Below, in pieces: positions 5,301 through 48,766 of a stretch of DNA of 64,000 nt (positions are counted from its first letter, which is position 1; every line of letters begins with the position of its first letter). Under the pieces are notes generated by a model, which had not been told where the DNA came from, ran no database searches, and saw only the letters and a list, made by a program, of their open reading frames with translations. Origin of the DNA: Squalus acanthias (taxonomy: Eukaryota); contig CM059432.1 in assembly GCA_030390025.1 (NCBI GenBank), positions 67,892,001 through 67,956,000 of the forward strand, read 5' to 3'. The translations under genes were made by a program, and so were the position numbers.

Positions 5301-6112
5301 ATTCTTTGCAACATTATAAGCTTCTTCTTTCAATCTAATGCTATCCTTAACTTCTTTAGTTAGCCACGATTGGATCACTTTTCCAGTGGAGTTTTTGTTT
5401 CTCAATGGAATGTATTTTTGTTGAGAATTATGAAATATTTCTTTAAATGCTAGCTACTGCTTATCTACCACCATACCTTTTAATCTATTTTCCAATCTAC
5501 CTTAGCCAACTCGCCCCTCATACCTCTGTAATTGCCTTTATTTAAGTTTTAAGACTTTAGTTTTGGACTTAGGCAAGTCACTCTCAAAATTAACGTGAAA
5601 TTCTAAAATATTATGATCACTCTGCCCCAGAGGATCTTTTACTATGAGATTGCTAATTAACCCTGTCTAATTACACAGTACAAGATCTAAAATAACCTGT
5701 TCCCTGGTTGGTTCCATGACATATTGTTCTAGGAAACTGTCCCGAATGCATTCCATGAACTCGTCCTCCAGACTGCCTTTGCCAAATTGATTTGTCCAGT
5801 CTATATGAAGATTAAAGTCCCCCAAGATTATTGCATTACCTTTGTTGCAAGCTCCAACTATTTCTTGATTAATAATCTGTCCAACAGTACAGCTACTGTT
5901 GGGGGCCTATATACTACTCTGTTTTCTGCCCCTTGTTATTCCTTATCTCCACCCATACTGATTCTACTTCCTGATCTTCTGAGCCGAGATCCTTTCTCGC
6001 GAATGTCCTTATGTCATCCTTTATTATCAGGGCTACTCCCCCTCCTTTTCCATTCTGCCTGTCTTTTTGAAACGTCAAGTACCCTGGAACATTTAGTTCC
6101 CAACCTTGCAAC
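2305..6112 (-). mobile_element. Long CR1 LINE (ORF2 endonuclease-RT, frameshifted), interrupted by a CR1 at 2673-3711 and by the LTR element at 6113; continues at 15440-15546
   Basis: ORFs 4383-5405 (KSPGPDG, NYRPVSLTS, QHGF, YLDFQKAFDKV), 3855-4349 (SVLGP..F.IYINDL, KFADDTK) and 5914-6112 (endonuclease GKGGGVAL). 3' tail at 2305. Confidence 0.9.
2673..3711 (-). mobile_element. 5'-truncated CR1 nested in the long CR1, with 11-bp flanking duplication
   Basis: ORF 2867-3688 is the CR1 RT C-terminal part; tail at 2673; ATATGTTTCAA occurs at both 2662-2672 and 3712-3722. Confidence 0.85.
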
Positions 6113-6689
6113 TGTAGAATTCGCAATATATCGCGATTTTATTAATAAGGAGAAAAACACAGAGTTTCGTTCAAACAGCTTTTATTCCAGCAGAATGCTG
6201 TCAGGTTTTCAAAGTGGACACAAGCAGCTTGTAAAATGGCCGCCGCACCTCGTGACAGAACATTCTAGACTTTTCGACAGGCAGACAAGATGGCGTTCCA
6301 ATAAACATTTGTGCAAGATCGATTAAGACTCAGCACATTTAAGATAATACACGAGACATCATGGGTTTACAGTATACACATAAATACTGAAATCGGTCTC
6401 CCAGGTGCGAATAAGAGCTATTGTACCAAGTAATCAAGAACCCATCCAAAGACATTAATATGTAAAATCCCAACGACTCTACGATGAGAGAGCCGTTAGC
6501 GGGTAGTTACAGAAAACACTTGGAAGCCCCAAAACTCCTCCAGGGAGAACACCGACCGATTAAACAATGGGAGAAATATTAACAGGTACTCAGACAGTTA
6601 CGAGTAGCCCCGAAACCCATTAAAACGAAGATCACCCTATACAAGACATTTGAGCGCCAAACCCTAACAAAAGAAAAGACATTAAGGTT

Positions 6690-6720
6690 GGGCGGGAAAC
6701 GGAAGATTTTGCACTATAAT
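6690..6720 (+). promoter_or_regulatory. Candidate LTR core promoter (GC box, ETS-like site, TATA-like box)
   Basis: GGGCGG 6690-6695, CGGAAG 6700-6705 and TATAAT 6715-6720, with a pyrimidine-rich initiator-like tract ~25 nt downstream. Motif inference only. Confidence 0.45.
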
Positions 6721-7491
6721 TGCAAGCTCCAAACCGTCCATCTCTCTCTTATTCTTGGCTCTTGACTCTTGACTCTTATCCTCGTGGCTGCCCTTGACTC
6801 GCCGTCTTGTTCCTGTTTGATGAACTGGGCTCTGAAGCCTTGAAGCGGGCGCACCATCCCGATAAGTCGGTAAACGGTGTTGGAACCGAAGGCCCGAGAT
6901 GAGATGAGATGAGATGAGATGAGATGAAAAGAGAAGAAGACCATACTTATCGCCACGGTCAGTAAGCTCCGACCGCGCCTGTAGGTCGAATAGACATTTT
7001 CCTTGCCAGGAAGACTTCTTCGAGTTTTACAGAACTGCCAGGAAGATTATTCTTCGAATTCTATCGCATCCGTGCGAGGGCACAGGAAGACTCTTTTTTG
7101 AGTAGAGTCGGAACTCCGAGGACAACACAGATCTTCATGACAGCAGACGTTCCAGCCTGCTAGCCGGAGCAGAAACGAGTAAACAAGTGGGGCCAGGAGA
7201 CCCCCTGATCGACACGTGGGCGCTGCGGTGAAAAACATCCGATCAGAGTTTTCGGAATTCTCCGAGTTATCACGAGTGGTGAGCATGAGTCTCGAATCCT
7301 ACGAATCTAGCTTAGGACAGATATTGATAGGGGAGGGTTTTAAGTATTAAGGATAATTGTAATGTGTGCCCCCATTTACGATGTGTCGTTCGTTCCTCGT
7401 TTCCCTGAAATTAATTACATAACTGCGTGTAAGATTGTACTGTCATTAATCTGTGCTTATGACATGTATTTCGTAATCTTAAATATTATGC

Positions 7492-7497
7492 AATAAA
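7492..7497 (+). promoter_or_regulatory. Candidate LTR polyadenylation signal (equivalent 15195-15200 in the 3' LTR)
   Basis: AATAAA downstream of the putative promoter in both LTRs, in an AT-rich context. Confidence 0.5.
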
Positions 7498-7741
7498 GAT
7501 TTTCCATTTCGTACCATTCAACCGAGTCTACCTGAGTTTCATCTCCATTACTGCTCTCGCATCTAAGTCCAGTGTCTAGAACCGTAAGGGCGAGTGGGTC
7601 GAACCACTCACAGGTGTGTCTAGTGCTCCCAGACTGGCTGGAGACCAGAACAGGCAACAAGGCCTAAACCCGCACTAGCACCCGGGCTGCACAGAGCCAC
7701 ACGAATCTCACAGGCTGAGAGACAAAAAACCCTTACAGAAA

Positions 7742-9549
7742 ATGGCGACCGCGGCAGGACACTGGCAGCGAGAGAATAATGTGTTCGACCCTGGTATGAA
7801 TGGGCGAAATGTCATGGAAGAGAGAATAGCAGATTATGTGTTCGGAAAAGTAAATTTGACTAAGAAATGGATAAGTGACCTGCTAGTGGATAAGTGTCCA
7901 CTAGAGGCAGCCGAGAGGTGGACAGATAGTAAGGAACATAAAAAGACAGTCGAGAAAGCAGTCTGGTTAATGTGTTATAAAAGGCAGGTCCAGATTTCAA
8001 ACCAGGTCATTACAGCGCAGGCAGCTCAGATCAAGAGTTTAGAGGTGGAAATGGACGAGAAGGTCGCGGGGGGGGGCAGCAGCTCATCACGACTTTAAAT
8101 GCGTTACATCAAGAACGCCAGTTAGTCACCAACCACCATGAAGCAAAAATAGATTACCTCGAGTGCCAGGTCACCGAGGCAAAGTTAAGTGAGGGTAGAT
8201 TAAAGGAACGATGTGCCCGCCTAGCTGCCCAAATAAAAGCCCAGGAAGAGAGCTTAACGGGGTTTAGGGCGGCATATAAGATGGCCCTCGAGGATAAATT
8301 TCAGGGGGCCGATCACAGCGTCTGCCAAAGAGAGATAGGGAACCTTAAAAATGCCTTGAACAAAGCGCACGGCATGGTGTGCCTTATCAGTCCGTCAGCA
8401 CACCAGCCGCTAGTAGATGAGGAGTTTCAGAAATCCCCACCGAACAAAGCAAAGGAAGTATTAGCCACTACGCCCTCCGCGCCACCCAGCTATTCGGCAA
8501 CCTGGGTGAGGGAGGAAGTAGTAGAAGAAACGAAAGAGCCCACTGAGGGAGAAGTGGAAAAGGGACCGTTGTGTCCGGTTACGGGTATCAAAAGAGGCCC
8601 GAACGGAGCGAATGCGGCAGAGGGGGATCTCCTCAACCAGCTTGTGTTGCCTCACAGCTCACACCAGCTGAGGGTTATGATCAGTCACGTACGGAAGCTG
8701 GCCGAGTCAGACGACCCTTCCGTACATTTCAGGGAAGTAGAGCAAACCGCAGCCATTAACGGCTGCGATGATGGGGAAAAAGCAAAAATGCTGTTATTCT
8801 CATTAGACAGCTCGATCCTTCAGTGTCTCTCAGACGAGAGCAAGAGGGGAATTAATACCTATGGGGAGCTAAGAGATGAGGTCCTAGAAGTGTTGGGAAT
8901 GGACGATGAAGGTCCGTTCGTTAGACTGGGACAAACAGTGCAGATGGAGGGAGAACCCCCGAAGGTTTTCGCCGACAGGCTGTGGCCAGTATATCAACGT
9001 AGCTGCCCAGGCGCACCAGCGCGTCACCGCCTAGACGGTGTCGGTTTAACTCATTGGCTCAGGTGTATAGTAGCCAACAGTTTGCCAGCCGTCAGGGAGC
9101 AGGCCAAAGCGTGGTTTGATCCCACTAACCCCGCCACAACAGAGGAGTCGGTCCTAAATCGACTCACGGTAGGGTACCGTAATACCAGGAGTATGGGAGC
9201 ACGTCCCCTTAAGGGAAAGGTGCATGAGGTACGACCCGCAGCCCCGGCTCAAAAGGAGTGGCATCAGGAGGGTAACCGCGCCCCGCAGGCCAGCAATGCT
9301 TGTTACGGGTGTGGGAAGACAGGGCACTGGCGCAAGAACTGCAGGAACCCTTGGAAGGATTCCAGGGATAGAAATCCCGCGGTCCGAGCCCAGGCGCCTG
9401 TCTCTGATAGGGGAGCTAGTGCACCCATCCATCCCGACGCGATCGAATCAGTGTTGGGAGCCATGCGCAACCTCATGAGTGCGCATGGAAGGGTGGCGGT
9501 TGCTACCGGCCCCGCAGGTGCCACAGCCCCGTCCAATAGTACCCAATGA
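7742..9549 (+). CDS. gag: Gag polyprotein (~602 aa if the frameshift in the G9 run at 8068-8076 is corrected)
   Basis: ORF 7742-8098 joins the frame that is open from 8077 to 9549. N-terminal coiled coil; PSAPPSY 8473-8493; MHR-like QMEGEPPKVFADRL 8941-8982; zinc knuckle CYGCGKTGHWRKNC 9301-9342. Confidence 0.85.
7743..7760 (+). other. Primer-binding site, tRNA-Arg (TCG type)
   Basis: TGGCGACCGCGGCAGGAC, 5 nt after the LTR end, is the reverse complement of ...GTCCTGCCGCGGTCG-CCA, which I recall as the 3' end of vertebrate tRNA-Arg(TCG). Confidence 0.85.
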
Positions 9550-10659
9550 CTAGAGCCCACGCAGCCTGCCTACCTGTGTCCTTTTAAAAGACACGCACAG
9601 GAGGGGCTCTCCGGTGAGGAGGCCAGGTTAAAAGAGCAGGCCTTGCGGGAGGAGAACGCCCGCTTAATAGGGAAAATAGATGGGCTGGAAGGGCAGCTTA
9701 GAGAGCAGGCCCTGCGGGAGGAGAACGCCCGCTTAATGGGAAAGTTAGACGTGCTCAGGCTAGAAGGGCAGCTTAGAGAGATAAAAGCAGCCTACAAGGG
9801 AGCCAGAAGCAGGGATTTAAACCAGTGCAAACTGTACAAGCCAGGTGCACAAGGGAAAACCACAGGGGCAAAACCTGCGAGTGGGGACTCGCAGCCCCAG
9901 GTAGGACCACAGGGCACACAGGCAGGCAGAGCAGCTTGCATCAGGGAAGGAGGCATCCTGGAAAATTGTGAAACATTTTTGTGGGGTTGGGAGTCAGATG
10001 AGGGAGAGTTCCGGGAACTCAAGTCAGATGAGGATAGTGAAGGTAGTGGAGAGTGGGTATCGGAGGACGCAAGGGTCGCCCCCGATTCAGGTATAGGGAG
10101 GACAGGGGCTGCAGATAGAGATCCACACAGGGTGGACACCGAGGCTGCAGGTCCCGAACACAGGAGGGAGGAGCTAGGGGAGGCGGAGTCAGCCACTGTG
10201 AGACCACAGGGCGTGACGGCGGAAACCTCAGAGCCCGAGCCGCCCGCCTTGAACGTCCTGCCCTCGAGGGAGGTAGGGATTGCGAGTGAAGGGCCGCCTG
10301 CTGGGCCGAGCAGGGCGGTGCCACAAGCTGCAAGTCCCGAGGTCAGGGAGGCGGAGTCAGGGGAGGCGGAGCCAGCGACTGTGGTGGGACCACAGGCCGT
10401 CCCGGTGGAAGTCTCGGAACCCGGTCCGTCGGTCCTGGGATTCCTGCCCCCGACAACTCCTCGTAGGTCAAGTCGAGCACCCCAGCCCAGGAAAATGTGG
10501 TCATGTCCCCAGACTGCCCCAAGGCGTAGGCTCAAGGTTAGGGCAGCCCAGGAAGGGCCCAGTCCCATCGCAGCAGCAACAGGCTACGGCAGATCAAAGG
10601 AAGGGGTCAGTGCCCTCCCACCGTCGGGAAGAGCTCGCAGCAGCCTTCTCAGAATTTAA
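9550..10659 (+). CDS. In-frame ORF after the gag stop (369 aa; coiled coil plus acidic/Pro-rich disordered region) occupying the pol position, with no PR/RT/IN motifs
   Basis: Open in the gag frame from the codon after TGA 9547-9549 to TAA 10657-10659. Contains a 69-bp tandem duplication from 9634 and a duplicated GEAE.ATV..PQ.V..E.SEP.P..L..LP segment. Confidence 0.6.
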   Translation, partial: LEPTQPAYLCPFKRHAQEGLSGEEARLKEQALREENARLIGKIDGLEGQLREQALREENARLMGKLDVLRLEGQLREIKAAYKGARSRDLNQCKLYKPGAQGKTTGAKPASGDSQPQVGPQGTQAGRAACIREGGILENCETFLWGWESDEGEFRELKSDEDSEGSGEWVSEDARVAPDSGIGRTGAADRDPHRVDTEAAGPEHRREELGEAESATVRPQGVTAETSEPEPPALNVLPSREVGIASEGPPAGPSRAVPQAASPEVREAESGEAEPATVVGPQAVPVEVSEPGPSVLGFLPPTTPRRSSRAPQPRKMWSCPQTAPRRRLKVRAAQEGPSPIAAATGYGRSKEGVSALPPSGRARSSLLRI

Positions 10660-10691
10660 AGGGGCCGCCCTGGGAACGGGCGGCGCTGTAC

Positions 10692-10844
10692 AGTAATAAG
10701 TTTAAGTTTAGGATAAGTTTCTAGGTTTATAGTTTAAGGTTAAGAATAAGTTTATAGTTTTAGAAAAGGTTATAAGTTTATAGTTTTAGATAAGGTTATA
10801 AGTTTATAGTTTTAAATAAGGTTAAGTTTGTAGTTTAATTTTAA
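10692..10844. repeat. AT-rich, almost C-free tandem repeat (26-bp period)
   Basis: ATAAGTTTATAGTTTTAGAWAAGGTT-like units start at 10746, 10772 and 10798; only one C in ~150 nt. Confidence 0.85.
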
Positions 10845-11017
10845 CAGAAAATGGCAAAATGATGGGAGCTTTAGAGATAGGTCTAGTTAAAGTTTATTTA
10901 GTGAACATTGAAGTTTACGTGAGGCGAGGTCAGGGGACCCGCTCACCCTTCACAAAAGCCAGAGACTCTTGCGAGGCTGGCTACCTCATTCTATCTGATC
11001 ACAGGAACCAAGGAAGG

Positions 11018-13369
11018 ATGGAACGAATTCTAGTATTGCTCGCGGCAATCGGATGTGGATTGGCCTATCGAGGCCGCACCAAGGATGTCGTGGTGTTTGG
11101 ATGCTCCGGGGACACGGCCCCCATCGCGGTGGATGGGACCGGAAGACGGGAGGCTGAGGAGACCACCACCTATTTCCACAAGGGAAGGTGGCCAGGATGG
11201 CTGGGAACAAACTCAACGGAGTATTCTAGCACATCGGGGTTTGCCTACCAAGAGACTTCTTTAATGTGCCCCAAAGTAAGGATCATCGCACCCAGGATCA
11301 GCGTCACCGTCGGCAAACGGATTTGTTTGACTTGTAATGGGAATGTCCCATTGAGCCGATGGTGGTGGCTGCGAAAGCTGAGCAAAAACATGAGGAACTC
11401 TTCGGTCGAGTGGGAACGACTGGGTAATAATACCCATCGGACAATTACGGGGACAAACGGACAAGTGAGAGTCTGTTGGGACAAATGGTGGGAACCGGAT
11501 GAGGGAATTTATGTATGCATGTGGGGGTCAAAGTACGCTTGCCCCAAAGGCATCTCCATATTTTTCATTAATCAATGGCAGGATAACGGACAGGGGATGA
11601 GGTGGGATGCGAGCACCAGGGGGTGCGGAGCCCCATACTCTTCGATCCCGGTAAATGCCACTGAGCTCATTACGCGCCCACGCAAAGCCCCGCCCACGAT
11701 TCCGGTGGTTCTAGCTAAAGAGGAAGGGTGCCCTAAAACTAGTAAGGGACCCGGGAATGGTTTGGTACTGGTCCCCACAGACCAGATACTATTTCAGGGG
11801 GTACATTACGCGGTGGCCTCGGTGATTTTAAATCTCACCGAGGTGCGGTTACCAGAGTGGTGCCCCAAAAAGACGGAACAGTTATATCAGGTCCTGTTGA
11901 CCAAGATGTTCAGACAATTTTACGAATTCGATTTTGCGGAAATTGATAAAACAAGTTTGTACACCGCACCACATGAAGTTTCTGATCAGGTGGGGAGGCA
12001 AAGAAGGGGTGTAGTGAACGACGCGTTCACTGCTTTTAACACGGGTACATCTGTGGTCAACGCTCTAGACAGCGTGGAGCTGCAGACCCAGATTAATGGT
12101 TTAAAGACGCAATTAAAAGACATTCTAACAGATGAAAATAAAGTGGTTGGGTCGGGTTTACACGAGGACCAAGCAATAACTCTCCATTTAAAGGAAATTA
12201 TAGCAGAGTTAGAGAAACATGCAAAGACGGTAAATGCCCTGATTAGGGAAGATCGGAATGCATCCGATCAAGCTGCGCAGAATGAGGTGTGCGTGCTTTA
12301 CGGGGCGTGGTTACTGGGCGAGGGCCGCAGTAATTTGGAGGATTTAAAACAAGGTTTGGTCCCGTCCTGGATAAGTAACAAACACCTGCGGGCGCTCCAC
12401 CCTTTTCAGAACGCATTAAGCCCGTGCCAGCTCAGGCTAGCTTCAGAAGCATACCCAGTCCCCGTGGACTGCGGACGATCAAACCATACTATCATGGGTA
12501 TAGTATTACGTATGCCGGTTTTGGGCGACACAGCAAAGCCCGCCCCGGTGTATCGGGTAGAGAACATTGGTGTCATTCAGGGGGGAGCCCACATTCGCTA
12601 TGCAGCGGTTCCACCCTACGTCATCCGCTGGGAGCAAACGATGACAGGTACAGATCTCTCTGGTTGTCGTGGCAGGGGAGCACACATAATACTGTGACCC
12701 CAGCACTTGAATGCCTTTTTAACACCACAGTGCGGGTTCAGAACGGCTGGCGCCAAGTCCATGAATTGCACCATGGAGGCAATGGCACAAGATCATGTGC
12801 CTCCGCAGGTAGCATACATCGGGGGTGGAACATATTGTGTTACCACTGCAGCGCAACACTACCAGCATGGAAACCGTAGCCGGTGTCCGGTGAGTGACAG
12901 CAGTTTCTGTTTCAAACCCAGGGCGGAAGTTCAAGTAGCACAACAGCGAATTGTCCCAATCCCTGAACCATCCACGGTTCATCTCACCGTAAAAGAGAAT
13001 TTCACCGACTTGCAGCGATTCGTCGCGCATTTCGGATACCTCATTCCCCCTCTCCCTGAACACCTCACCAAGCTTTTGAAAGCCGTCGCGGTGTCACAGA
13101 AACATTTTTACACACTCGAGCAGAAAACTGTCGAAATAGGGACAGACATTCTGGATATAGTAATTCCACCGTGGTGGAATCTGTTCACCAATATTGAAGT
13201 ACCTTCATGGATCAGAATAGCCTCCCACATTTTAGTCGTATGCCAAGTTTTTATTGTAGTGTACCTATTGGTCGTACATTGTAAGAGAGGCAAACGCCTC
13301 ACCAAGCATGAAAACACGGGAGAGTGGCGAGAACGTTATGTGCACGTGCACAACGAAAGCACCGTGTAA
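11018..13369 (+). CDS. env: Envelope glycoprotein, class I F-like fusion protein with N-terminal Ig-like domain (783 codons; one in-frame TGA at 12695-12697)
   Basis: Signal peptide MERILVLLAAIGCGLA; Ig motifs; furin site RQRR 11996-12007 followed by a fusion-peptide-like segment and heptad repeat; Cys-rich F1-like core; many N-x-S/T sequons; TM segment ~13210-13280; short tail. ORFs 10859-12697 and 12707-13369 are in the same frame. Confidence 0.88.
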
Positions 13370-13806
13370 TCGGAAAATGGCGTCACTCCCGCTTGCCACG
13401 TGCGCCGCGGAAGTTTGTACTCGATCATGATTTTCAAAGACTGTAAATACGTTTGGAACTCGACATGTTTTAAGAGTTGGTGTTGATTATTTTGGTGATG
13501 GTGTTGTAGTTAAAAATGATTGTTTGGTTTTGGTTTTGTTTTCCTTTCCCTAAATAAAAAGATGAATATACAGGTGATATGAAAGGCATCGGCCTGGTTA
13601 CGCCGGGAAGGAAAACAAGTGGTGTAAGTTTAAAGGCAAATGATGCCTACGGTGATATAAAGTGTAATTTTCTTGGGAAATAAGGACGACGCAAAGACCC
13701 TAGATAGTTTAAGTTATGGGTTTAAATTTTCTGGATTCGGAGAAAATCGAGATAATATTGCTCACCACTATTTTTTGATACGATAAGCGGAGTTATTCGC
13801 ATCAAC

Positions 13807-13814
13807 AAGAGGGA
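13807..13814 (+). other. Short polypurine tract
   Basis: AAGAGGGA immediately upstream (1-nt gap) of the 3' LTR start TGTAG at 13816. Confidence 0.6.
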
Positions 13815-13815
13815 C

Positions 13816-15439
13816 TGTAGAATTCGCAATATATCGCGATTTTATTAATAAGGAGAAAAACACAGAGTTTCGTTCAAACAGCTTTTATTCCAGCAGAATG
13901 CTGTCAGGTTTTCAAAGTGGACACAAGCAGCTTGTAAAATGGCCGCCGCACCTCGTGACAGAACATTCTAGACTTTTCGACAGGCAGACAAGATGGCGTA
14001 CCAATAAACATTTGTGCAAGATCGATTAAGACTCAGCACATTTAAGATAATACACGAGACATCATGGGTTTACAGTATACACATAAATACTGAAATCGGT
14101 CTCCCAGGTGCGAATAAGAGCTATTGTACCAAGTAATCAAGAACCCATCCAAAGACATTAATATGTAAAATCCCAACGACTCTACGATGAGAGAGCCGTT
14201 AGCGGGTAGTTACAGAAAACACTTGGAAGCCCCAAAACCCCTCCAGGGAGAACACCGACCGATTAAACAATGGGAGAAATATTAACAGGTACTCAGACAG
14301 TTACGAGTAGCCCCGAAACCCATTAAAACGAAGATCACCCTATACAAGACATTTGAGCGCCAAACCCTAACAAAAGAAAAGACATTAAGGTTGGGCGGGA
14401 AACGGAAGATTTTGCACTATAATTGCAAGCTCCAAACCGTCCATCTCTCTCTTATTCTTGGCTCTTGACTCTTGACTCTTATCCTCGTGGCTGCCCTTGA
14501 CTCGCCGTCTTGTTCCTGTTTGATGAACTGGGCTCTGAAGCCTTGAAGCGGGCGCACCATCCCGATAAGTCGGTAAACGGTGTTGGAACCGAAGGCCCGA
14601 GATGAGATGAGATGAGATGAGATGAGATGAAAAGAGAAGAAGACCATACTTATCGCCACGGTCAGTAAGCTCCGACCGCGCCTGTAGGTCGAATAGACAT
14701 TTTCCTTGCCAGGAAGACTTCTTCGAGTTTTACAGAACTGCCAGGAAGATTATTCTTCGAATTCTATCGCATCCGTGCGAGGGCACAGGAAGACTCTTTT
14801 TTGAGTAGAGTCGGAACTCCGAGGACAACACAGATCTTCATGACAGCAGACGTTCCAGCCTGCTAGCCGGAGCAGAAACGAGTAAACAAGTGGGGCCAGG
14901 AGACCCCCTGATCGACACGTGGGCGCTGCGGTGAAAAACATCCGATCAGAGTTTTCGGAATTCTCCGAGTTATCACGAGTGGTGAGCATGAGTCTCGAAT
15001 CCTACGAATCTAGCTTAGGACAGATATTGATAGGGGAGGGTTTTAAGTATTAAGGATAATTGTAATGTGTGCCCCCATTTACGATGTGTCGTTCGTTCCT
15101 CGTTTCCCTGAAATTAATTACATAACTGCGTGTAAGATTGTACTGTCATTAATCTGTGCTTATGACATGTATTTCGTAATCTTAAATATTATGCAATAAA
15201 GATTTTCCATTTCGTACCATTCAACCGAGTCTACCTGAGTTTCATCTCCATTACTGCTCTCGCATCTAAGTCCAGTGTCTAGAACCGTAAGGGCGAGTGG
15301 GTCGAACCACTCACAGGTGTGTCTAGTGCTCCCAGACTGGCTGGAGACCAGAACAGGCAACAAGGCCTAAACCCGCACTAGCACCCGGGCTGCACAGAGC
15401 CACACGAATCTCACAGGCTGAGAGACAAAAACCCTTACA
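13816..15439 (+). repeat. 3' LTR (1624 bp)
   Basis: Direct repeat of 6113-7737; ends CCCTTACA, followed by TSD CAAC. Confidence 0.97.
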
Positions 15440-15546
15440 CAACCATGTCTCTGTAATGGCTATTAGATCAAACCCATTTATCTCTATTTGTGCCACTAGT
15501 TCGTCTATCTTGTTACGAATGCTTCGTGCATTTAGATAAAGTTCTG
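15440..15546 (-). mobile_element. Continuation of the interrupted CR1 (endonuclease N-terminus)
   Basis: Minus translation LYLNARSIRNKIDELVAQIEINGFDLIAITETWL joins QGWELNVPGY on the other side of the LTR element. Confidence 0.9.
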
Positions 15547-17689: not shown

Positions 17690-20610
17690 TAGTGTCCTTA
17701 CAGGAGATGGGTTTGGAAGAAGTATACTTGTGAGAGTCAGTGGGCTTGTATAGATGTCAGTAGAAAGCCCAGCACCAGAGATAGAACAAAGTCCTTCAAG
17801 GGAAGGGAAGGGTCAGAGCTAGACCATGTAAAGGTGAAGAATGGATGGAAATTGGAAGTATAGCTAATGAAATTCTCGACATCAGAATGAGAGCAGGAAG
17901 CGGCACCAACATAATCAATAGAGGAAGAGGTCGGGGGGTAGTGGGGGAATGCCTTAATAGGATTGGAACAAAGAATTTTCCACGTATCCTACAAAAAGAG
18001 CATATCTTGGGCTCATGTGGGTTTCCATAGCAAAACCTTTTATCTGAGGGAAATGAATGGCGTTAAAAGATAAGTTGCTCATGATGAGAACAAGTTCAGC
18101 TAGGAAAAGGAGGATGGTGGTGGACAGGGACTGGTTGGTCCACTGCTGAAGGAAGTTGACAAATTTTGTCTGTCCTGCTAAGAGAGACTGAATATCCATG
18201 TTAATGAGGAGATAATTGGGGCTGGACAATCTGAGATTGTTAAAGTGGCAGAAAGCATCAGAAATGTTATGGATATAGATGGATAGGAACTGAATAAAGC
18301 AGTAATGATTGAGCCTAGACAAAAGAAATTTAGATTGGTGGAACAGGAATAGGCTAAAATAATCAATCTGCTGGGACAGTCCTATTTGTGTTTCCTAGGA
18401 TGGAGCTATAAATGAGCTGTACGGTGCTGGGGAACAATTGGACTTGAGGTTGTTGCAGAAAAATAACTGGACGAAGTGAGATTAGTAACAATCTGGAAAA
18501 TTATGCTTGGGGTTCAATAGTAGGATTGTGGTCTCGAGGGAGATACGGAGTCATCATAAAATTAACACTCAGCCTTAGACAGGTAGAGGTTCGGCTGAAA
18601 TACAACAACAGCACTTCATTTTCAGCGGGTTTAATGATGATGTCAGGGTTGAAGCTGAGATAGCAGAGAGGAACAAGTTCAGAATGGGGGGGTAGAAAAA
18701 ATGAGACAGCTGATATCACAGCCGCAGTTCTCAATGAAAATGTCAAGGGACCAAAGGGTGTAAGGATAAACCCAGCAACTACAGGCCAGTCAGTTTAACC
18801 TCGGTAGTGGGGAAGCTTTTAGAAACGATAATCAGGGACAAAGTTAACAGTCATTTGGACAAGTGTGGATTAATTAAGGAAATCCAGCATGGATTTGTTA
18901 AAGGCAAATCGTGTTTAACTACCTTGATTGAGTTTTTTGATGAGGTAACAGAGAGGGTTGATGAGGGCAATACGGTTGATGTAGTGTATATGGATTTTCA
19001 AAAGGCATTATAAAGTGCCACATAATAGGCTTGCCAGCAAAGTTGAAGCCCATGAAGTAAAAGGGACAGTGGCAGCATGGATATGAAATTGGCTAAGTGA
19101 CAGGAAACAGAGAGTAGTGGTGAACGGTTGTTTTTCGGACTGGATGAAGGTATGCAGTGGTGTTCCCCAGGGATCGGTACTAGGACCACTGCTTTACTTG
19201 ATATATATTAATGACTTGTACTTGGGAGTACAGGATACAATTTCAAAATTTGCAGATGACACAAAACTTGGAAGTATAGTGAACAGTGAGGAGGATAGTG
19301 ATAGACTTCAAGAAGACAGACAGGCTAGTGAAATGGGCAGACACATTGCAGATGAAATTTAAAGCAGAAAAGTGCGAAGTGATACATTTTGGTAGGAAGA
19401 ATGAGGAGAGGCAATATAAACTAAAGGGTACAATCCTAAAGGAGGCGCAAGAACAGAGAGACCTGGGGGTACATGTGCGCAAATCATTGAAGGTGGCAGG
19501 GCAGGCTGAGAAAGCGGTTAAAAAAGCATACGGGATACTGGGCTTCATAAATAGAGGCATAGAGTACAAAAGCAAGGAAGTTATGATGAAACTTTATAAA
19601 ACACTGGTTCGGTCTCAACTGGAGTATTGTGTCCAATTCTGGGCACCACACTTTAGGAGGGATGTGAAGGCCTTAGAGAGGGTGCAGAAAAGATTTATGA
19701 GAATGATTCCAGGGATGAGGGACTGCAGTTGCGTGGATAGATTAGAGAAGCTGGAGCAGAGAAGGTTGAGAGGAGATTTGATAGAGATATTCAAAATCAT
19801 GAGGGGTCTAGACAGAGTAGATAGAGAGAAACTGTTCCCATTGGTGGAAGGGTCGAGAACTAGAGGACACAGATTTAAAGTGATTGGCAAAAGAACCAAA
19901 GGCGACATGAGGGAAATCTTTTTTATGCAGCGAGTGGTTAGGATCTGGAATGCACTGCCTGAAAGGGTGGTGGAGGCAGACTCAATCGTGGCTTTCAAAA
20001 GGGAATTGGATAAGTATCTGAAGGAAAAAAATTCGCAGGGCTATGGGGAAAGGGTAGGGGAGTGGGACTAGCTGAAGTGCTCTTGCAGAGAGCCGGCACG
20101 GGCTCGACGGGCCGAATGGCCTCCTTCTGTGCTGTAACCATTCTATGATTCTAGGTGAGACAGGAGACAGAAGAAGGGGTCGAATTACGGAGAGAGGGGA
20201 CCAAAAAAGAAGTCCTGGAAGTAGAGGTAATAGAAGATGGGCTTAGCATCATGTCGAATTCCAAAAACGTTCAAGTGGGGACATAAGATGAAGAAACTCA
20301 AGCCTTTGCTCAGGACAGATTATTCAGGGTCAGAAAGGGACCGTCAGAGGGATGGTGGAAATCCAGCAAGAAATAAGATTAGGGGGTGGAACAGCATCCA
20401 AACTGTGCATGAACTTCTGGTTCTTAACATTTGCAAGGAAGAAAATGCAGACAGCATCGGCTCAATCTTTACAGTAGCTATCCTGGTCCTCAATTCCACA
20501 ACATCCTTCATCTCATTTACTTTAATAAAGAAAACTTTTCTTCTCCTTCTCTCCATGTGGGGGAGCACCTGAGCAATAATAATCATTCAATCATCAGATT
20601 TCAGTTGGTT
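17690..20610 (-). mobile_element. Degenerate Penelope-like element RT remnant, split by the CR1 at 18760-20153
   Basis: Minus-strand MDIQSL, QIKGFAMETHMSPRYALFVGYVE and DIIIKPA resemble the Penelope RT motifs MDV.SLY, Q..GVAMGT.MGP.YA.LF and IKPADKG. Boundaries approximate. Confidence 0.55.
18760..20153 (+). mobile_element. 5'-truncated CR1 LINE (ATTCTATG-tail subfamily)
   Basis: QHGF, YMDFQKA, GVPQGSVLGP, KFADDTK, ORF 19286-20071; tail TTCTATGATTCTA. Confidence 0.92.
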
Positions 20611-21849
20611 CCGGTTGGTTTACTGTTGCAGATAATTTAATGTTAGCACGAGACTTTAGGAGGGCTCACTTTTCAAATATGAGGGAAGATTTGGGGGGTG
20701 AAATTGGATTAGGCCTGAAAATGGGTGCAGGGATCGCAATGTGCGATCTGCCCACGCCTGTTGAAAGTGGTGCAGGTAGCATGCAAAATTCGTGCTGCCT
20801 GCTCATTATAATGATTGGAGCGCCGAGCTCAGCACTAAACGCGCTGCTGGTTGGCTCAGCACTCAACAGGGGACCAATATCAGGTGCCGTCTCCTGGCCA
20901 ATAAAATTTTGCCAAGGCTCTCTGCACTTCTTAAAGAGGAGGTACTTTGTTGCAGAAGCACCTCATTGTCACTGTCACTGTAGCAGCAGCAATGTTGCAA
21001 CAGGGAAGAGAAAGGGCACCTCGCTTCTCAGATGCAGCACTGAGGCCTTGGCCCAAGGGGCATACAGAAAAAGACAGGTCCTCTACCCACAGGGGGACAG
21101 CAGGCTTTCCAGGCAGCACACTAGAAGGCAGTGGAGAGAGATAACACAAACCGTCAGTGTCACCAGTGTTGCCCCCAGGACCTGGATCCAGTGCCGCAAG
21201 AAGTTTAATGGCCTCACACGAGTGGTCAAGGTGAGTGAATGAAACTTCAAATGCCATATCCCACCAACTGCACCACTAGCCTCATACACTGCTCAATGTA
21301 CCACACCCCCAGCATTACCTACCAACAATCACTAGCAATCACAACTCACACCTCACAATCATAGTTTCACCTCACCCTCACACACTTACCCCTGCTGCAA
21401 GCCTCACATGCACATCTCACACCTTGCACACAATGTCAGCTATTCAAGCATGACAGGCACATCACCCAAACACATTGTACCACACACACCAACACATATC
21501 CCTTTCTCTTGCAGGCCAAGGTGGCTCACAATAGGTGTGAGCAGCAGCAGATAGGTGGGGGTGAAGCATGTCTACACAACCATACTGCGCTGGAGGAGAC
21601 TGTGCTGGAGATAATTAGAGGGGCCGTCCCTGAGGCCGTGGCGAGCGGCGAGGTTGAAAGCATTGATGATGATGTTATGCTCATACCTAATCCATCTTCT
21701 CACATCCCACTTCCCCCCCAATCTCACAATCTCTTCTCAATGACATGCTGCCAATGGTGTAAGCATGTACATCTCGCTTTCCCCCCCTCTCCTCACCACA
21801 ACCCGACCCTTGTGCCTTTTTCCTTTTAGATACCCAAGAACTGCCAGCA

Positions 21850-29812: not shown

Positions 29813-32800
29813 GGGGAGAAATTGGGCTCTGTGGCGCCCGTTTTTTAGGCGCTATGCAGCCGCCTAACGGTAGAAAATGGTGTCCGAAATGCGCGCGCAC
29901 ATGTTCGACGGGAAGTATGCCGGACTCCATCTTGTTAAAGAGGTTTGCGCGTGTGCACTGGCAGAGCTGGCAGATTATGATGTCAATCAGAGTGCACCAT
30001 TGATTTGAAGCCAGCGCTGTCATTTTCGAACGTTGTGCTCCAGCCTACTTCCCTGTTTTAACAGCGCACAGCTGAACACAGCATTAAATGGAATGAAGGA
30101 CCTCACACCAGCGCTATTTAAAGGGATCATAAACTACTTACAGATTAGTTGCTGGATTATGTCGTCTGGCTGCTGGTGCAATTGTATGCGTTTTTGAAGT
30201 TTTCCTATATTGGCTAAAGTTTCAATAGTCTACAGGGAGTGGTCTGGCTGGTGCTGAAGTACTTTTTTGTTGATTTAAAAGCTTGTGCTGAAGCAAGTTG
30301 CTTCCAAACATGGGTGGCCTTGTAGTCTGGTGTGCGACCACAGGCAGCATATCATACAGGTCAATGCCCATTATCCTGGCAATAGTTATGATTCCTTCAT
30401 TTTGCGGCAGTTCTCTGTGCCACCTGTAATTGACTGATCACAGCAAGTCAAAGGCTGTCAACTGGGTGACAAGGAACCCATGCACACGTGCACAGCAGGC
30501 CTACAATGAGAGCCGTGCCCCCGCAAGGAACATTATAGAGCACACCATCAAGCAACGCTTCCGCTGCCTGGACTGCTCTGGAGGAGCCCTGGAGTAGACA
30601 GCTGAACGGGTATCATGTTTTGTGGTAGCATGCTGCATGCGCATAACGTCGTCATTATGAGGGAACAGCCGTTGCCACCACCTATCAGGTGAGAAGCTGA
30701 GGAGCAGGAGGAAGACGAGGAGGAGGAGGAGGAAGAAGAGGAGGAGGAAGTACAACAGGAAGTGAAGGAACAGGAAGAGGAAGGGAGGCTACAACACAGA
30801 CAGCCACTTTCTGCCCTGGCTCTACGTGAACAAATAATTCATGAGCGATATCAGTAACCTCAACCACACCTCCCCATTCACCAACAGTCCCACACTCCTT
30901 ACCTTTCCTCTGTCACTGACCATCACATCAACCTCTTTCTGACAACGCAAAATTTAAAACCACCAGAAAATGCGCATTCCAATCCAAATTTATAAATTCC
31001 ATCATGAAATAATGCATACAAAAATAAACTAAGCACGCTTGTGCATTCCCTTAGTGCCTGTCTTCCGTGTGCCTTTGTCCATCCTAGTGTTCCTGTGAGG
31101 TGCTTCCCCAGTAACTGCAGCATGGGTGGTGGAAGGCTGCTGACCTCCAATTGAAGAGACTGCAGATGGCCTTGGAGGGCAACCTAGAAGGTCCAGCCTC
31201 AGACTGCACCATCTCAGCCTGGGCTGCAGCATTCTGGGCTGGCTGGTTGACAGGCAACAGCAAGGGGACTGTTGGAATGGCAGGGGTGGGAGCAGGAATG
31301 CTGTCATCCTGAGAGAGGACAGGAGATTCGTGCTCCATGGAGCCACTGTCTCTCTCCCAGGGCGGCGCCTCAGCAATCTTACTGATCGGTTAGAGAACAG
31401 ATTGATGGACTGCTGTGACACCCTGGAAGTCATGATGGCAGCAGTTTGAGCTTGCAAGGCAGCAGACTGAGCTTCCACTGCAGCACTCAGACCTTTGGTG
31501 GAAGCTGTTTGTGCAGCAATGATAGTGGTGACATCGGCCATCAGACACTGCATCTTGATAGGTTCCACAGGTGTGCTGATGGAGGTGACCACCCATTCCA
31601 TGTTGGAAAGGATGGGCTCCAAGGTCTGCGCAAAGCCCTGTGCAAAGTTGGTGCTGGACTCCTCCATGCTCCTTGACATTGTGCACAGGCTTTCTGGCAG
31701 GCTTTCCAGTGCACCAAGCATTTGGGTGTGCACACCCATCAGCCTTCTTCTGTAGCCTGGCCCATCGAAGTCCTCATCTGACTCCTCTGCAGCAAAACTA
31801 GTGTGTGACCTCACCCTCCGGCGAGCTGGCACCAGCGCTATCCTTTCCCCCCACCCTGGCTCCTGCACACTTGTGCCCGGTGTCTCACCGCATGCAGATC
31901 ACTCCTCTATCCTAGCCTCTAAAATATGTGCAGTGTCTGAGCCTGTGGCTGCGAGTGTAAGATCAAGTGACAGTGTCTTCTTCACTGTCTTCTTCATCTT
32001 CCTCCTCTGACTATGAAGGTTCCAGTCCTTGGGTGTCTGAAATGAAAAAGGGACAGTGGTTGGGTTGTGGTGAGGGGAGAGGAGAAAGTAAGAAGTGGGT
32101 GCTTACACCATCTGCAGCTTCTAAGTCAGAAGAGATTGTGGGATGAGGCAGAAGTGGAATGAGAGGAGGAGGATTTCTTATGCAGATACCCTCAACACTC
32201 TATCGTTTCAGCCCCGCCAGTATCACAGCCTCTGTGATGCCCCTCCCATGATGGCCACACTGTCTCCTCCATGGGGGTTAAAACATGCAGGTGCACTTGT
32301 CCTCCTCCAGTTCTTTGCTGCTGCCTGCTGTTATGCGCCATCTTCTCCTGCAAGAAAGAGGGAAGTGTGTCAGTGAGTGTCCTGCAATACATTTGGGTGA
32401 TGTGGCTGATGGTTGAATAGCTGCCAGTGTGTGTGAGTTGTGAGTTGTGGGTGTGAGGCTTGCAACAATGTTAAGTGTGTGAGGGTGAGGTAAAACATAT
32501 GAATTTTAGATTTGAGTGCTGATTGATAGAGATTGTTGGTAGGTGGGTGATGGGGATGTAGTGAATTGAGCAGTGGATGAGGCTAATGGTGCAGTTGGTA
32601 GAATATGCCATTTGAAGATGAACTCACTCACCTTGACAACTCGTGTGAGATTGTTAAACTTCTTCCTGCACTGCATCCATGTTCTTGGAGCTACACTCCT
32701 GGCATTGACTTCCACCGCTACTTGTTCTCACTGCCTCCTGAGCATGTGTCTGGAGGGCCTCCTGCTCCCCCCACCCCCACCCCACCCTTTTGGATACAGG

Positions 32801-36945: not shown

Positions 36946-38916
36946 ATGTCGACTTCAAGGCCCAAGGCCTCACCACACTTTAATGATGACTCACTCCATG
37001 CTCTGGTGGAGGGAGCCAGAGCACAAAAGGAGGTGCTCTTTCCATCCTCTGGGAGGAAAAAACCTCCTCAGCAGACCAAAGCTGTGTGGCTGCAAGTTGC
37101 CCAGGAGGTCAGTTCCAGATCGATGTGCAGCAGAACCTGGCTGCAGTGCCGAAAGAGGTTCAATGACCTTGTCCGAACAGGCAAAGTGAGTATAGCATCA
37201 CCTTTACCCTCATTCTGCTCCCCATCTCCTCTCAGCACCAGCACTCTGCATTGTCAACCTACTCCTACACATCCCACTTTACCCTTACATCCCTTGCACC
37301 CTTAACCATTCCCTCTCTCTCTATGTACACAATCACTTCACTATTCGATTATGCTGCCCTCACACTCCCTATCACTGTTATGCTATGACAACAACTAACA
37401 ACACACAGGGAGGGCCCTTAGTATTGGGACCTCACTCCATATTTGTGTCCTTCTAAGCATCTATGCTATGGATTATCTACACTCACTCCATTATTCTCAC
37501 TCAAACTCCACTTGTGTCCCTCACTGCAGGAAAAGAGAGCCCACAATAAGAGGGAAAGGGCGAAGACCAGAGGAGGGCCAGCCTCAATAGCCCATCTTAC
37601 CAGCGCAGAGGAGGCGGCCCTAGAGATCATTGGAGCCGAGGAGGATGTGGAAATGGGGGACGGACAGACTGGCACATCAGAGCAAGCTGGTGACAGAATA
37701 GTTTGCATCTCTCTCATTGACATTGCATGAGTGACTGATATGGCTTCTGATGCTCAAACAGATTGACTTATGATCATCTGCACTATTCAATGTGCATATA
37801 ACATTTATATCACATGTCTAACTCATGCCTTTACTCCCCCACAGGACCATCGACAGCCCCCCTTCCCCATTGTCCAGGAGGAAGAGGCTGAGCCGGAAGA
37901 CTCCTCAGAGGAACCTGCAACCTCTGAGGGCGCAGCGTCAGCAGAATTAAGCGCACCCAGCACCAGCGCAGATACGCACACCTCGGTGGGACCTTCAGGA
38001 CACAGAGTAGTGTTGTCACCTGGTGTATCACAGCTCACAAGTGAGCATCAGCAGATGGGGGAGACAGGGACAGCAGTGGAGAGTCTTCGTCAGAGGCCAC
38101 AGGGTGCTCCCAGCTCTGCTCAGCTGCATGTGGACCCTGTGCCTCCGGGTCCATCCAGAAGGAGAGCAGTGCTGGAACTCCAGGAACAGGTTCAGGAGTC
38201 TCTGGCAGGTTTTGTCTCCAGGGTCACTGCGAGTGTGGAGCGGATGGAGGAGTCCAACGCTAACATGAGCAGAACCTTTGTGGAGGCATTGGCGAATGAA
38301 CACATCACCATGGAAAGGATGGCTACTTCCATGGAAAGGATGGCTACGGTAGAGGAGAGGATGGCTATGGCCATGGAGGAGCTAAGTCGCCAGAGTGTGG
38401 AAAACATGGTGAATGTTCAGAATAGACTGACATCTCTGGAGGAGCGATGGATAGCTATTGATCAGAGAAACCAGGCCTTCATGGAAGTCCTCTGGAGTAG
38501 GACTGCTAGTGCAGAAACGGGTCCTCATGGCCCCCCTGATGTGCAGCAAGGTGCTGTCAAGCCACTTGCTAGCTCTGAAGTGGGGCTGACCCATGGGAGG
38601 GATGTTGGTGGCAGAGAACATGAAAGTGGGGGCTCCTCTCCAAGCGCTCACACTCCCATGCCACTGCGGAGCCCTCGGTCAGAGCCCCACCAGAGTCCTC
38701 ACCCAACTGAGATGGGCGTCTCAGCCCCTGCACAGACGCAGGAGGAGCAGACTGTTGGCGAGCCCTCATAGGCTCGCAACCCCAGAGAACGCCCGCCAAA
38801 GGTGTCGAACGAAGCAGGAGCAGCATGAGAGTGAGCAAGGGGCCTCCACATCTGCTGAAGCCACAGGGGAAGCACCACGTAGGAGCACGCGTAAGAGGAA
38901 GATAATGCACAAGTAG
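36946..38916 (+). pseudogene. Harbinger Myb/SANT-like DNA-binding protein, 3 exons (approx. 36946-37185, 37530-37689, 37845-38916), frameshifted
   Basis: PHFNDDSLHALVEG...W.QVAQEV...RTWLQCRKRFNDL; GT-AG junctions; exon 2 EKRAHNKRERAKTRGG; coiled-coil exon 3 ending PRRSTRKRK. Confidence 0.75.
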
Positions 38917-39174: not shown

Positions 39175-40420
39175 TTAAGCAAATCTGGTCAAGATGAGTG
39201 CATTCCTTGCATCCCGGGCAGCAATGTGCTTGCGTGCTGCTGCAGCTGGTTGATGCACATCCACAAGGCCTTTGTACTCGTTCTCCTCCTCCTCCTCCTC
39301 CTCCTCATCTGAGGAGGCTATGCGCTGAGCCACTTGTTCCTCAGGCAGCTGCAAGCCACGATGCTGTGCGATGTTGTGCAGTGCACAGCAGACCACGATG
39401 ATTCTGGAGACCCTGGCTGCTGAGTACTGCAGGGCTCCACCTGATCTGTCAAGTCATCTGAATCGCATCTTCAGCAAGCCGATGGTTTGCTCGATGATGG
39501 ATCTGGTGGAAATGTGGCTGGAGTTGTAGCGCTCCTCAGCTTCGTTGGATGGCCTCCTGAACGGTGTCATTAGCCACATCTTCAGGGGATAGCCCTTGTC
39601 TCCAAGTAGCCATCTGCAAAGTTGGTTTGGCGGACTGAAGCGCGGAGGCACACTAGACTGCCACAGGATGAACGAGTCATGGCAACTGCCAGGGTACTTG
39701 GCGCAAACATGCAAAATGTCCTTCTTGTGGTTACACACCAGCTGCACGTTGAGGGAGTGGAAGCCCTTGCAGTTGACAAAAAGAACTGGGTTGTGATGGG
39801 GTGCCTTAAGGGCCACTTGTGTGCAGTCTATGACGCCCTGCACCCTTGGCAAGCCTGCCATATTTGCAAAGCCTACCACACGCATGTTTATAATTGCTTG
39901 ATCCGTGGAGAAGTGTATGTAATTGTGCGCCTTTGCAAAGAGGGCATCGGTAACCTGTGTGATGCAAGTGTGTGCGGTCGACTGGGAGATGCCGCTGATG
40001 TCTGCTGATGATCCCTGGAAGGAGCCTGAAGCAAAAAAGTTGAGTGCGGTGATGACTTTGACAGCCACTGGTAAGGGGTGTCCACCCGCTCCACTGAGCT
40101 CCAGGTGTTGGTGCAGCATTGCGCAGATGTCACCGACTACCTCTCGAGAAAGTTTCAGCCTCCGTTGGCACTGCTGCTCACTCATGTTGAGGAAGCTCAT
40201 CCTCATCCTGTAAACCCTGTTTTGGGGGTATCTGCTGTGGCAACGTGCTTCCCTGCGCTGGCGCCTTCTGCCCTGTGAACCATCAGGTGGGTGAGCAGCA
40301 AGTTTGGTGCTCCTGTTGTTGCTGCTGTTGGTGCTGCTGTTGTGCCTGCTTCTGCTGCTGCTGCGGCTGCTCGTCCTCCAAATCTGAGGACCAGGATGAA
40401 AGGAAATAAATGGTTCCCAT
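39175..40420 (-). pseudogene. Harbinger DDE transposase (HARBI1-like) with a premature stop at 39454-39456 and a 5' frameshift
   Basis: [58 protein letters not shown]. Confidence 0.9.
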
Positions 40421-48080: not shown

Positions 48081-48225
48081 CTAGCACACACACACAAACA
48101 TACTCCTACTGTCCTCCTCCTTCCTTCCCGCAGGTCCTCTCTGCCTGGGTTTCATAGGCTGCAGTGTGGTCCTCCCGACCCCGCTGCTGGTCCACGCTGC
48201 GCCACTCCTGGGCGTCGACCTCGCT

Positions 48226-48766
48226 GCTGGGCTCGTCCTCGCCCCTGGGCCTCGTCCTCGCCCCTGGGCCTCGTCCTCGCTCCTGGGTCCCGACCTCGCT
48301 CCTGGGTCCCGACCTCGCTCCTGGGTCCCAACCTCGCGCCTGGGCCCCGTCCTCACCCCTGGGCCCCGTCCTCGCCCCTGGGTCCCGACTTCGCTCCTGG
48401 GCCTCGTCCTCGCTCCTGGGCCTCGACCTCGCTCCTGAGCCCCGTCCTCGCCCCTGGGCCTCGTCCTCGCCCCGGGTCCCGTCCTCGCTCCTGGGTCCCG
48501 ACCTCGCTCCTGGGCCTTGACCTCGCTCCTGGGCCTCGACCTCGCTCCTGAGCCCCGTCCTCGCCCCTGGGCCTCGTCCTCGCCCCGGGTCCCGTCCTCG
48601 CTCCTGGGTCCCGACCTCGCTCCTGGGCCTTGACCTCGCTCCTGGGCCTCGACCTCGCTCCTGAGCCCCGTCCTCGTCCCTGGGCCTCGTCCTCGCCCCG
48701 GGTCCCGTCCTTGCTCCTGGGTCCCGACCTCGCTCCTGGGCCTCAACCTCGCTCCTGGGTCCCGAC
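48226..48766. repeat. GC-rich 19-bp minisatellite (CTGGGTCCCGACCTCGCTC variants) with a 113-bp higher-order repeat
   Basis: About 28 units; the diagnostic CTGAGCCCC variant recurs at 48435, 48548 and 48661. Confidence 0.95.

Follow-up and report, generated by a model that had tools for sequence, protein, structure and literature searches.

Organization of the element

The window analyzed here is the whole 64,000-nucleotide stretch of the Squalus acanthias genome (assembly GCA_030390025.1, contig CM059432.1, positions 67,892,001 to 67,956,000 of the forward strand), and all positions given without a contig name refer to it. At 6113-15439 it contains an endogenous retrovirus (ERV) in which two long terminal repeats (LTRs) enclose gag, a reading frame termed ORFx in the place of most of pol, and an env whose product is predicted to resemble viral F proteins. 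The LTRs have TG..CA ends and, over 1,625 and 1,624 bp, differ by two substitutions and one single-base indel (3/1,625 sites). On either side lies the 4-bp target-site duplication (TSD) CAAC, and the host site is a high-copy minus-strand long interspersed nuclear element (LINE), which we take to be of CR1 type, interrupted by the insertion. An LTR divergence of 0.12% translates into an insertion age of 0.3-2.8 million years (My) when the mammal and shark rates of PMC4422223 are applied. An earlier note, made by a model from the letters alone, had reported these LTRs with their three differences, the CAAC duplication, an 18-nt primer-binding site (PBS) and a polypurine tract (PPT), and each of these was recovered; the PPT is short, and the PBS corresponds to tRNA-Arg(TCG).

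A 5-nt spacer separates the 5' LTR from the PBS, the complement of which matches the 3' end of tRNA-Arg(TCG) genes found in the genome (431 matches to the pattern; reversed control, 0), and ARAGORN called tRNA-Arg(TCG) at 2 of 3 loci examined. Among the 431 matches are long 1.62-kb tandem arrays in which this tRNA gene accompanies tRNA-Ser(GCT) (G000:C26:38996704-41883849). The LTR of the element is about 80 bp shorter than most LTRs of the family, with the gap at 6819-6822, and the same shortened junction is common to 3 of 26 other loci, all of which carry gag haplotype B, one of the two haplotypes described below.

The capsid region of gag has look-alikes among retrotransposon Gag and Ty3 capsid proteins (score 0.95, taken as a lead only), and its single-sequence structure model is of low confidence (predicted local distance difference test, pLDDT, 38). 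A candidate splice acceptor, read from the letters, ends at 11005, 5' of env. Both structural genes had been considered intact; in this copy, however, the gag frame is broken in a G run near 8067-8075, and env has an in-frame stop at 12695-12697. Because the env stop occurs in 0 of 24 other copies covering the site, these breaks are either private to this copy or assembly errors, and the gag break sits in a homopolymer. Consistent with the initial observation that enzyme domains are missing, Pfam gave no match to protease, reverse transcriptase (RT), RNase H or integrase in any of the 6 interior frames scanned, and none of any kind in a 263-codon antisense frame at 9792-10580. No frame of at least 60 codons resembling 3'ORF was found between env and the 3' LTR. 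The features are listed in Table 1.

Table 1. Positions of the features of the ERV within the window.
Feature	Positions	Strand	Remarks
Left TSD, CAAC	6109-6112		right copy 15440-15443; inside a minus-strand LINE, presumably CR1-type
5' LTR	6113-7737	+	1,625 bp; AATAAA at 7492
PBS	7743-7760	+	18 nt, tRNA-Arg(TCG); overlapped by the first gag-frame ATG (7742)
gag	7742-9549	+	coiled coil, capsid-like region, one CCHC knuckle; haplotype B; ends in TGA
TGA-CTAG stop context	9547-9553	+	between gag and the pol/ORFx frame
ORFx part 1	9550-9581	+	first 11 codons of pol
ORFx part 2	9582-9817	+	78-codon coiled coil; internal 69-nt duplication
ORFx part 3	9818-10659	+	last ~280 Pol codons; A/P/G/E-rich tail behind the integrase GPY/SH3 module
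env	11018-13369	+	signal peptide, possible weak immunoglobulin (Ig)-like head, RQRR cleavage site, predicted F-like fold, transmembrane helix
Short PPT	13804-13814	+	
3' LTR	13816-15439	+	1,624 bp

ORFx is a remnant of pol with a captured Gag coiled coil

ORFx had been listed as an additional gene of unknown nature; it proved to be pol with about 3.6 kb swapped out, so that 11 pol codons are followed by 78 foreign codons and a tail of about 280 codons. It lies in the gag frame directly behind a TGA-CTAG stop, a context that favors readthrough and that is identical in 23 of 23 pol-less copies, in the long (pol-bearing) copy inspected and in a sister ERV family. We infer that the gag stop is read through into ORFx; no stable RNA structure was predicted 3' of the stop (z -0.08 and +1.69).

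The 78-codon insert is not present in the long form. Its DNA is 81-82% identical to that of the Gag coiled coil of the sister ERV family (E 4e-27), read in the sister's own frame in both copies examined, and the sister family is its donor. That family, which was found through a contig joint in an independent sequencing run and has 61 motif matches genome-wide, is 32% identical to the present one in Gag and 61% in protease, and has the same TGA-CTAG boundary; the sister copies L038 and L039 are both broken. When the insert was compared with the family's own Gag, 13 of 1,000 shuffles scored equally well, and a protein search among longer proteins gave no match to it. Copies exist with and without the 69-nt duplication inside the insert, and at G000:C2:100309704-100309892 and C2:128041561-128041749 the junctions lie 69 nt closer, that is, without it.

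A contig from an independent sequencing run spans the 5' junction of the insert, and in organisms C and D insert coverage overlaps that junction by fewer than 31 letters, which is a weak hint. The 3' junction between insert and tail found in the window has 180 matches in the genome, versus 1,111 for the 5' junction, and most short copies therefore carry another 3' junction. A second type was observed in copy L011, picked by its LTR, where about 24 codons of unplaced origin also preserve the frame; the same copy has an inverted family LTR, 86% identical, nested in gag (oriented positions 868-2498). In the Pol tail, 305 residues follow the integrase GPY motif, compared with 38-158 in 4 homologues.

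Two forms of one family in the same genome

Junctions and LTR starts were counted genome-wide with patterns at no more than 2 mismatches, and the counts are lower bounds in which haplotype duplicates on small contigs may be included. The short junction, in which pol is replaced, was found 1,111 times, the long gag-pol junction 2,269 times and LTR starts 5,536 times (controls, 0 in each case). The long form, LTR-gag-TGA-pol-env-LTR, measures about 12.8 kb and the short form about 9.4 kb; LTR, PBS, gag, Pol tail and env are common to both, with env 97-99% and LTRs 96-99% alike. The Pol of the long form contains RVP, RVT_1, tether, RNase_H, H2C2, rve and SH3 domains, and the order gag-TGA-pol-env was present in both long copies examined (LTR spacing 11.1 kb).

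An LTR search gave pairs spaced by about 7.7 and 11.1 kb. Among 26 pairs derived from the first 100 exact LTR starts on contig C1, 19 were spaced by 10.7-11.2 kb, 5 by 7.7-7.8 kb and 2 fell between, and none showed the spacing expected of a pol copy without env (about 8.7 kb; 8.3-9.0 kb). In addition, for 11 of the 40 best pol matches, an env match ranking among the best 40 lay as far away as expected. Since the long copies carry gag, pol and env and no env-less spacing was seen, the partner of the short form is a complete element. The suggestion in the earlier note of pol-bearing elements with the same LTR was thus borne out with env included, and its idea of one half of a complementing two-component system was not.

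The short form inserted independently many times. All 24 other short copies examined were colinear with the window in the region of the 5' junction, and among 14 with both LTRs, 12 had perfect 4-bp TSDs with differing flanks, at LTR divergences of 0.12-2.95%. Copies of the same structure with different TSDs, as well as a young, multi-copy, non-autonomous family needing Pol in trans, had been anticipated from the single locus. Tandem arrays consisting of the interior plus one LTR, with pol-less junctions every 7.4-7.7 kb, occur at G000:C661:55573-71267, C3485:7047-21841, C1:143657925-143673389 and C1252:732750-740453.

Env is predicted to fold like a paramyxovirus F protein

The structure model of Env has a pLDDT of 61 overall and of 80-95 in the core, and of less than 50 in the head (residues 1-230). 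In a Foldseek search of the PDB, human parainfluenza virus 3 (hPIV3) F ranked first (E 6e-11; template modeling score 0.29/0.49), and all 37 PDB matches listed were F proteins. The cleavage site RQRR fits RXKR/RXRR. According to this model, Env folds like the F proteins of paramyxoviruses and pneumoviruses, in line with the Mononegavirales-F-like Env first proposed from the letters. Sequence-based searches gave no Pfam family match for Env, PF00523 was without a match in 38 of 38 Env relatives, and the best E value in a profile search against the PDB was 0.18. In Atlas, a 0.84 match led to an unnamed entry, and the family placement came only through the fold search. The putative Ig-like head had weak matches (E 0.23 and 0.72; one homologue, 0.0085). 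Relatives of Env were found in a skate (75%), a sawshark (58%), other sharks and frogs. The model also matched predicted viral Envs in BFVD, including those of walleye epidermal hyperplasia virus 1 (E 5e-10), walleye dermal sarcoma virus (4e-9) and feline foamy virus (1e-4).

The family resembles SnRV

Snakehead retrovirus (SnRV) is primed by tRNA-Arg and has an in-frame gag-pol stop, and this family has both the tRNA-Arg primer and the in-frame stop; neither gag-pol readthrough nor tRNA-Arg priming is known as a feature of foamy viruses. The nearest Pol proteins comprised one relative at 86% and, at 35-42%, proteins from amphibians, coelacanth and turtle; the "NYNRIN-like" names that these carry are automatic labels. 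In an RT tree of 52 rows, which included no SnRV or lokiretrovirus (Loki) reference and from which 7 of 58 proteins were left out (4 short, 3 without a match), the query group was weakly supported (80/81), within a dual-RNase-H clade and outside the gamma/epsilon/lenti group (90/97).

The assignment was made by eye against the alignments of PMC7947760 (Dataset S3) rather than from a tree with references. Over 132 RT positions counted in this way, the family shares 69 with SnRV (52%), 52 with Loki-Lch (39%) and 52 with feline foamy virus. The motif LPQGF is found here and in SnRV, and PFG in its place in 24 of 24 Loki rows. RNase H, judged by eye against non-Loki rows, resembles the SnRV row. 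The amphibian and coelacanth Pol matches are of the SnRV type, unlike Loki-Lch, Loki-Rca and Loki-Xtr. Because its RT and RNase H resemble those of SnRV, the family is, on these sequence comparisons, SnRV-like (class III) and not a lokiretrovirus. SnRV-like ERVs are known from the elephant shark (CmiERV lineage I, PMC4422223).

A chondrichthyan lokiretrovirus, as favored in the earlier note, could draw on the F-like Env, the dual RNase H, the N-terminal coiled coil of Gag and the automatic Pol names. However, foamy Env has the F fold experimentally (PMC11468914), and an F-like Env is therefore no marker of lokiretroviruses; the dual RNase H (tether plus RNase H) of the long form is common to all retroviruses and not diagnostic; and PMC7947760 reports 0 lokiretroviruses among 6 chondrichthyan genomes. 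With RT motif, RT identity and RNase H all on the side of SnRV, this assignment was rejected as very improbable.

Selection and recombination

Selection was examined in 23 short copies, 20 picked by ORFx likeness and 3 by LTR or as the window itself, all with the minority 3' junction; L034, which has a flank in common with L030, and L011, whose gag contains a nested LTR, were left out. For variants present in at least 2 copies, the ratio of nonsynonymous to synonymous polymorphism (pN/pS) was 0.16 in gag haplotype A, 0.06 in the surface (SU) part of env and 0.03 in its transmembrane (TM) part, versus 0.50, 0.31 and 0.45 for singletons (Fisher p 3e-5, 3e-3 and 2e-11, respectively), and the shared ratios of gag and env ranged from 0.03 to 0.24 overall. 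There were no shared stops, and 0 of 3 shared indels within the frames shifted them, whereas 31 of 35 shared non-coding indels were not multiples of three, a contrast that is generous because the non-coding parts are repeat-rich. Frames were open in 18 (gag), 17 (ORFx) and 13 (env) of the 23 copies, and all three in 6.

ORFx behaved differently. No significant selection was detected in the insert (shared variants, 5 synonymous and 6 nonsynonymous; p 0.47), and the Pol tail gave no purifying signal (shared pN/pS 1.3); the lack of shared stops in ORFx was not significant (p about 0.09). Shared variants of the tail (9818-10659) are mostly nonsynonymous (39 versus 10; singletons 29 versus 25; p 0.007), mainly G>A and A>G. 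What counts in ORFx is most likely the open frame or the RNA rather than the amino-acid sequence.

Two gag haplotypes, about 89% alike, occur together with mosaics: A in 2 long and 17 short copies, and B in 7 short copies. A motif of B (0-1 mismatch) was found at 8 places on C1, of which 2 precede the long junction and 1 the short, with 5 unassigned. Because haplotype A is present on both forms and the B motif precedes both junction types, the long and short forms recombine, and this recombination points to co-packaging. The exchange of gag and env with the helper means that selection may have acted in helper lineages; the purifying selection seen on gag and env of the pol-less copies may thus be inherited from the helper.

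How the short form may spread

Very probably, in our view, the element belongs to a non-autonomous subfamily in which the pol of an SnRV-like ERV, itself recently expanded, has been replaced, and most likely the short form spreads with enzymes borrowed from full-length relatives that reside in this genome. Mobilization in trans is suggested by the missing enzymes together with fresh TSDs and near-identical LTRs. In such a scheme, the short-form RNA would be transcribed from its own LTR and would yield Gag and, by splicing, Env, and readthrough at UGA-CUAG would produce Gag-ORFx where the helper makes Gag-Pol. The RNA would then be packaged in mixed particles that also hold helper Gag-Pol, which would supply protease, RT and integrase, with tRNA-Arg as the primer of reverse transcription; particles containing one long and one short RNA could give rise to the recombinants. 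The short form would be a parasite of helper enzymes that is probably still paying in structural proteins.

Several points weigh against this account. Translation, readthrough, particles and present-day mobility are all deduced from DNA only, and the signal of selection cannot be attributed to short copies as such, since their gag and env recombine with those of the helper. The sample is biased, 20 of 24 short copies having been picked by ORFx likeness and the 3' junction of the window having 180 matches against 1,111 for the 5' junction, and one copy picked by LTR has a different, in-frame 3' junction. Only 2 long copies were read, the RT tree was built without SnRV and Loki references and supports the query group at only 80/81, and haplotype duplicates may have added to the counts.

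The strongest competitor, and a quite plausible one, is a pure parasite, in which open gag and env reflect youth and recombination repair by the helper, and only cis-acting RNA is kept (PBS, a packaging sequence inside gag, the Pol-tail region, the env splice site and the PPT); the sole difference from the account above is that no role would fall to the proteins of the short form itself. Exchange of gag haplotypes and the near-identity of env between the forms agree with it, as do the lack of a significant selection signal in the insert, which is the sole part specific to the short form, and of a purifying one in the tail, the small number of copies with all three frames open, and the overlap of the first gag ATG with the PBS, from which packaging signals probably lie within coding sequence. 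On the other hand, no gag- or env-deleted subfamily is dominant (5 of 5 short LTR spacings on C1 fall at 7.7-7.8 kb), ERVs usually shed env, as in the canid example of PMC6407205, and both insert junctions, the second 3' junction and the duplication all preserve the frame. Those four frame-preserving rearrangements (roughly a 1 in 80 chance, were they independent) speak for a cooperating partner, in which the short form would be dedicated to donating Gag and Env while Gag-ORFx, bearing a second Gag-type coiled coil, would be a functional protein that promotes encapsidation of the RNA encoding it or adjusts the Gag:Gag-Pol ratio. The invariant stop context in 23 of 23 copies, the in-cis action of the IAP 1delta1 gag-pol fusion (PMC6466679) and the purifying selection on gag and env of pol-less Athila elements (PMC2410132) are compatible with such a role. 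Nevertheless, insert and tail show no amino-acid constraint, the absence of shared stops in ORFx falls short of significance, and a helper that has its own gag and env and is twice as numerous needs no donor, so that a cooperating partner is a rather unlikely proposition. The probability left between parasite and partner belongs to a state in which the structural proteins are made and used and ORFx is merely an open frame.

A bolder proposal is less likely still, namely a stable split between an enzyme form and a structural-gene form that would be selected to keep gag, F-type env and a readthrough protein with a captured Gag coiled coil, contributing to mixed particles, combined with an F-type Env that would be the ancestral retroviral envelope, shared by this SnRV-clade virus with foamy viruses and lokiretroviruses. 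Half of a two-part system, with a partner that has pol and lacks env, stands a very slim chance: nothing was found in its favor, the long copies carry env and 0 of 26 C1 LTR pairs fall at 8.3-9.0 kb against 19 at 10.7-11.2 kb, and it would need a hidden class of copies that lack env and whose LTR starts have diverged. A single post-insertion deletion or misassembly could appeal to the two private breaks of this copy, one of them in a homopolymer and both possibly errors, but is hardly credible, as the 5' junction recurs in 1,111 copies and the 3' junction in 180, and the independently sequenced contig spans the former; the alternative that all other copies carry a normal pol is thus contradicted. 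A non-autonomous subfamily that relies on complete relatives remains our preferred reading.

Significance and neighboring features

Defective ERVs that succeed have normally lost env and the ability to encode proteins. In this genome, by contrast, about one in three of some 3,400 young proviral interiors has dropped the enzymes only, with capsid, envelope and readthrough frame retained, and the parasite-or-partner question is testable on thousands of dated copies. The expansion is a very large and recent one of SnRV-like elements in a cartilaginous fish, and few ERVs have been described from that group. What is new is the combination, in a vertebrate retrovirus, of open gag and predicted F-type env, a Gag coiled coil captured in frame and more than 1,000 young copies; neither this family nor an SnRV-clade Env of the F type was found described in the open-licence literature, subscription papers and Repbase/Dfam being outside the scope of the search. 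If the model holds, F-type Env occurs in the SnRV clade as well as in foamy viruses and lokiretroviruses, a distribution relevant to the four scenarios that PMC7947760 gives for how retroviral Env arose.

Elsewhere in the window, frames at 39454-40452 (minus strand), 20583-21242, 31029-31898 and 37767-38771 presumably correspond to Harbinger-type transposase and Myb-like partner proteins. A GC-rich 19-nt minisatellite of at least 22 units occupies 48224-48804, and two glutamate-codon-like 15-nt repeats (30703-30795 and 52454-52573) are possibly exons of acidic proteins.

Comparison with known systems

Members of the SnRV clade (PMC4422223, PMC12193657, PMC4977317) share with this family the RT and RNase H motifs, the top RT identity, the dual RNase H and a cartilaginous-fish host. 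In contrast to the clade, the present family has a longer stretch behind GPY, no frame like 3'ORF and a pol-replaced subfamily, and whereas CmiERV copies are few and old (55-75 My, PMC4422223), those found here are young and number in the thousands.

ERVs whose center was swapped for part of another retroelement have been described in bovine ERVK D/C, ETn/MusD and recKoRV (PMC10924933), and IAP 1delta1 keeps an in-frame gag-pol remnant acting in cis (PMC6466679). EAV-HP may be a further precedent for an ERV with deleted pol. The pairs IAP 1delta1/IAP, ETn/MusD, recKoRV/KoRV-A and ERVK D/C resemble ours in partner LTRs, a swapped center and recombination between forms. Like other non-autonomous partners, the short form shares its LTR and PBS with an autonomous element, has inserted independently many times and contains a foreign central segment; the loss of structural genes that belongs to this pattern was not observed (gag open in 18/23 copies, env in 13/23). 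IAP 1delta1, ETn, recKoRV and ERVK D lack intact genes or env, unlike the short form, in which the readthrough frame is also open in 17/23 copies; furthermore, the swapped-in piece is here an in-frame Gag coiled coil, and the helper outnumbers the parasite 2:1. The Athila elements of Arabidopsis (PMC2410132) are alike in their LTR-gag-env-like-LTR layout without pol, selected reading frames and recombination between families, but Athila is a plant Ty3/gypsy element mobilized by other families, whereas the present case involves a vertebrate retrovirus, a predicted true fusion-protein fold and a helper of the same family. In zebrafish, BHIKHARI-2 is non-autonomous as is the short form, while BHIKHARI keeps gag only (PMC7947760, bioRxiv 2024.03.25.586437).

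With lokiretroviruses (PMC7947760) the family has in common an F-like Env, the dual RNase H and a coiled-coil Gag, and differs from them in RT type. The foamy Env and other class Ib fusogens (PMC11468914) offer a parallel to the envelope, which likewise combines the paramyxovirus/pneumovirus F core with a module preceding the furin site. The same source puts orthoretroviral Env in class Ia, whereas the SnRV-like Env described here models as class Ib.

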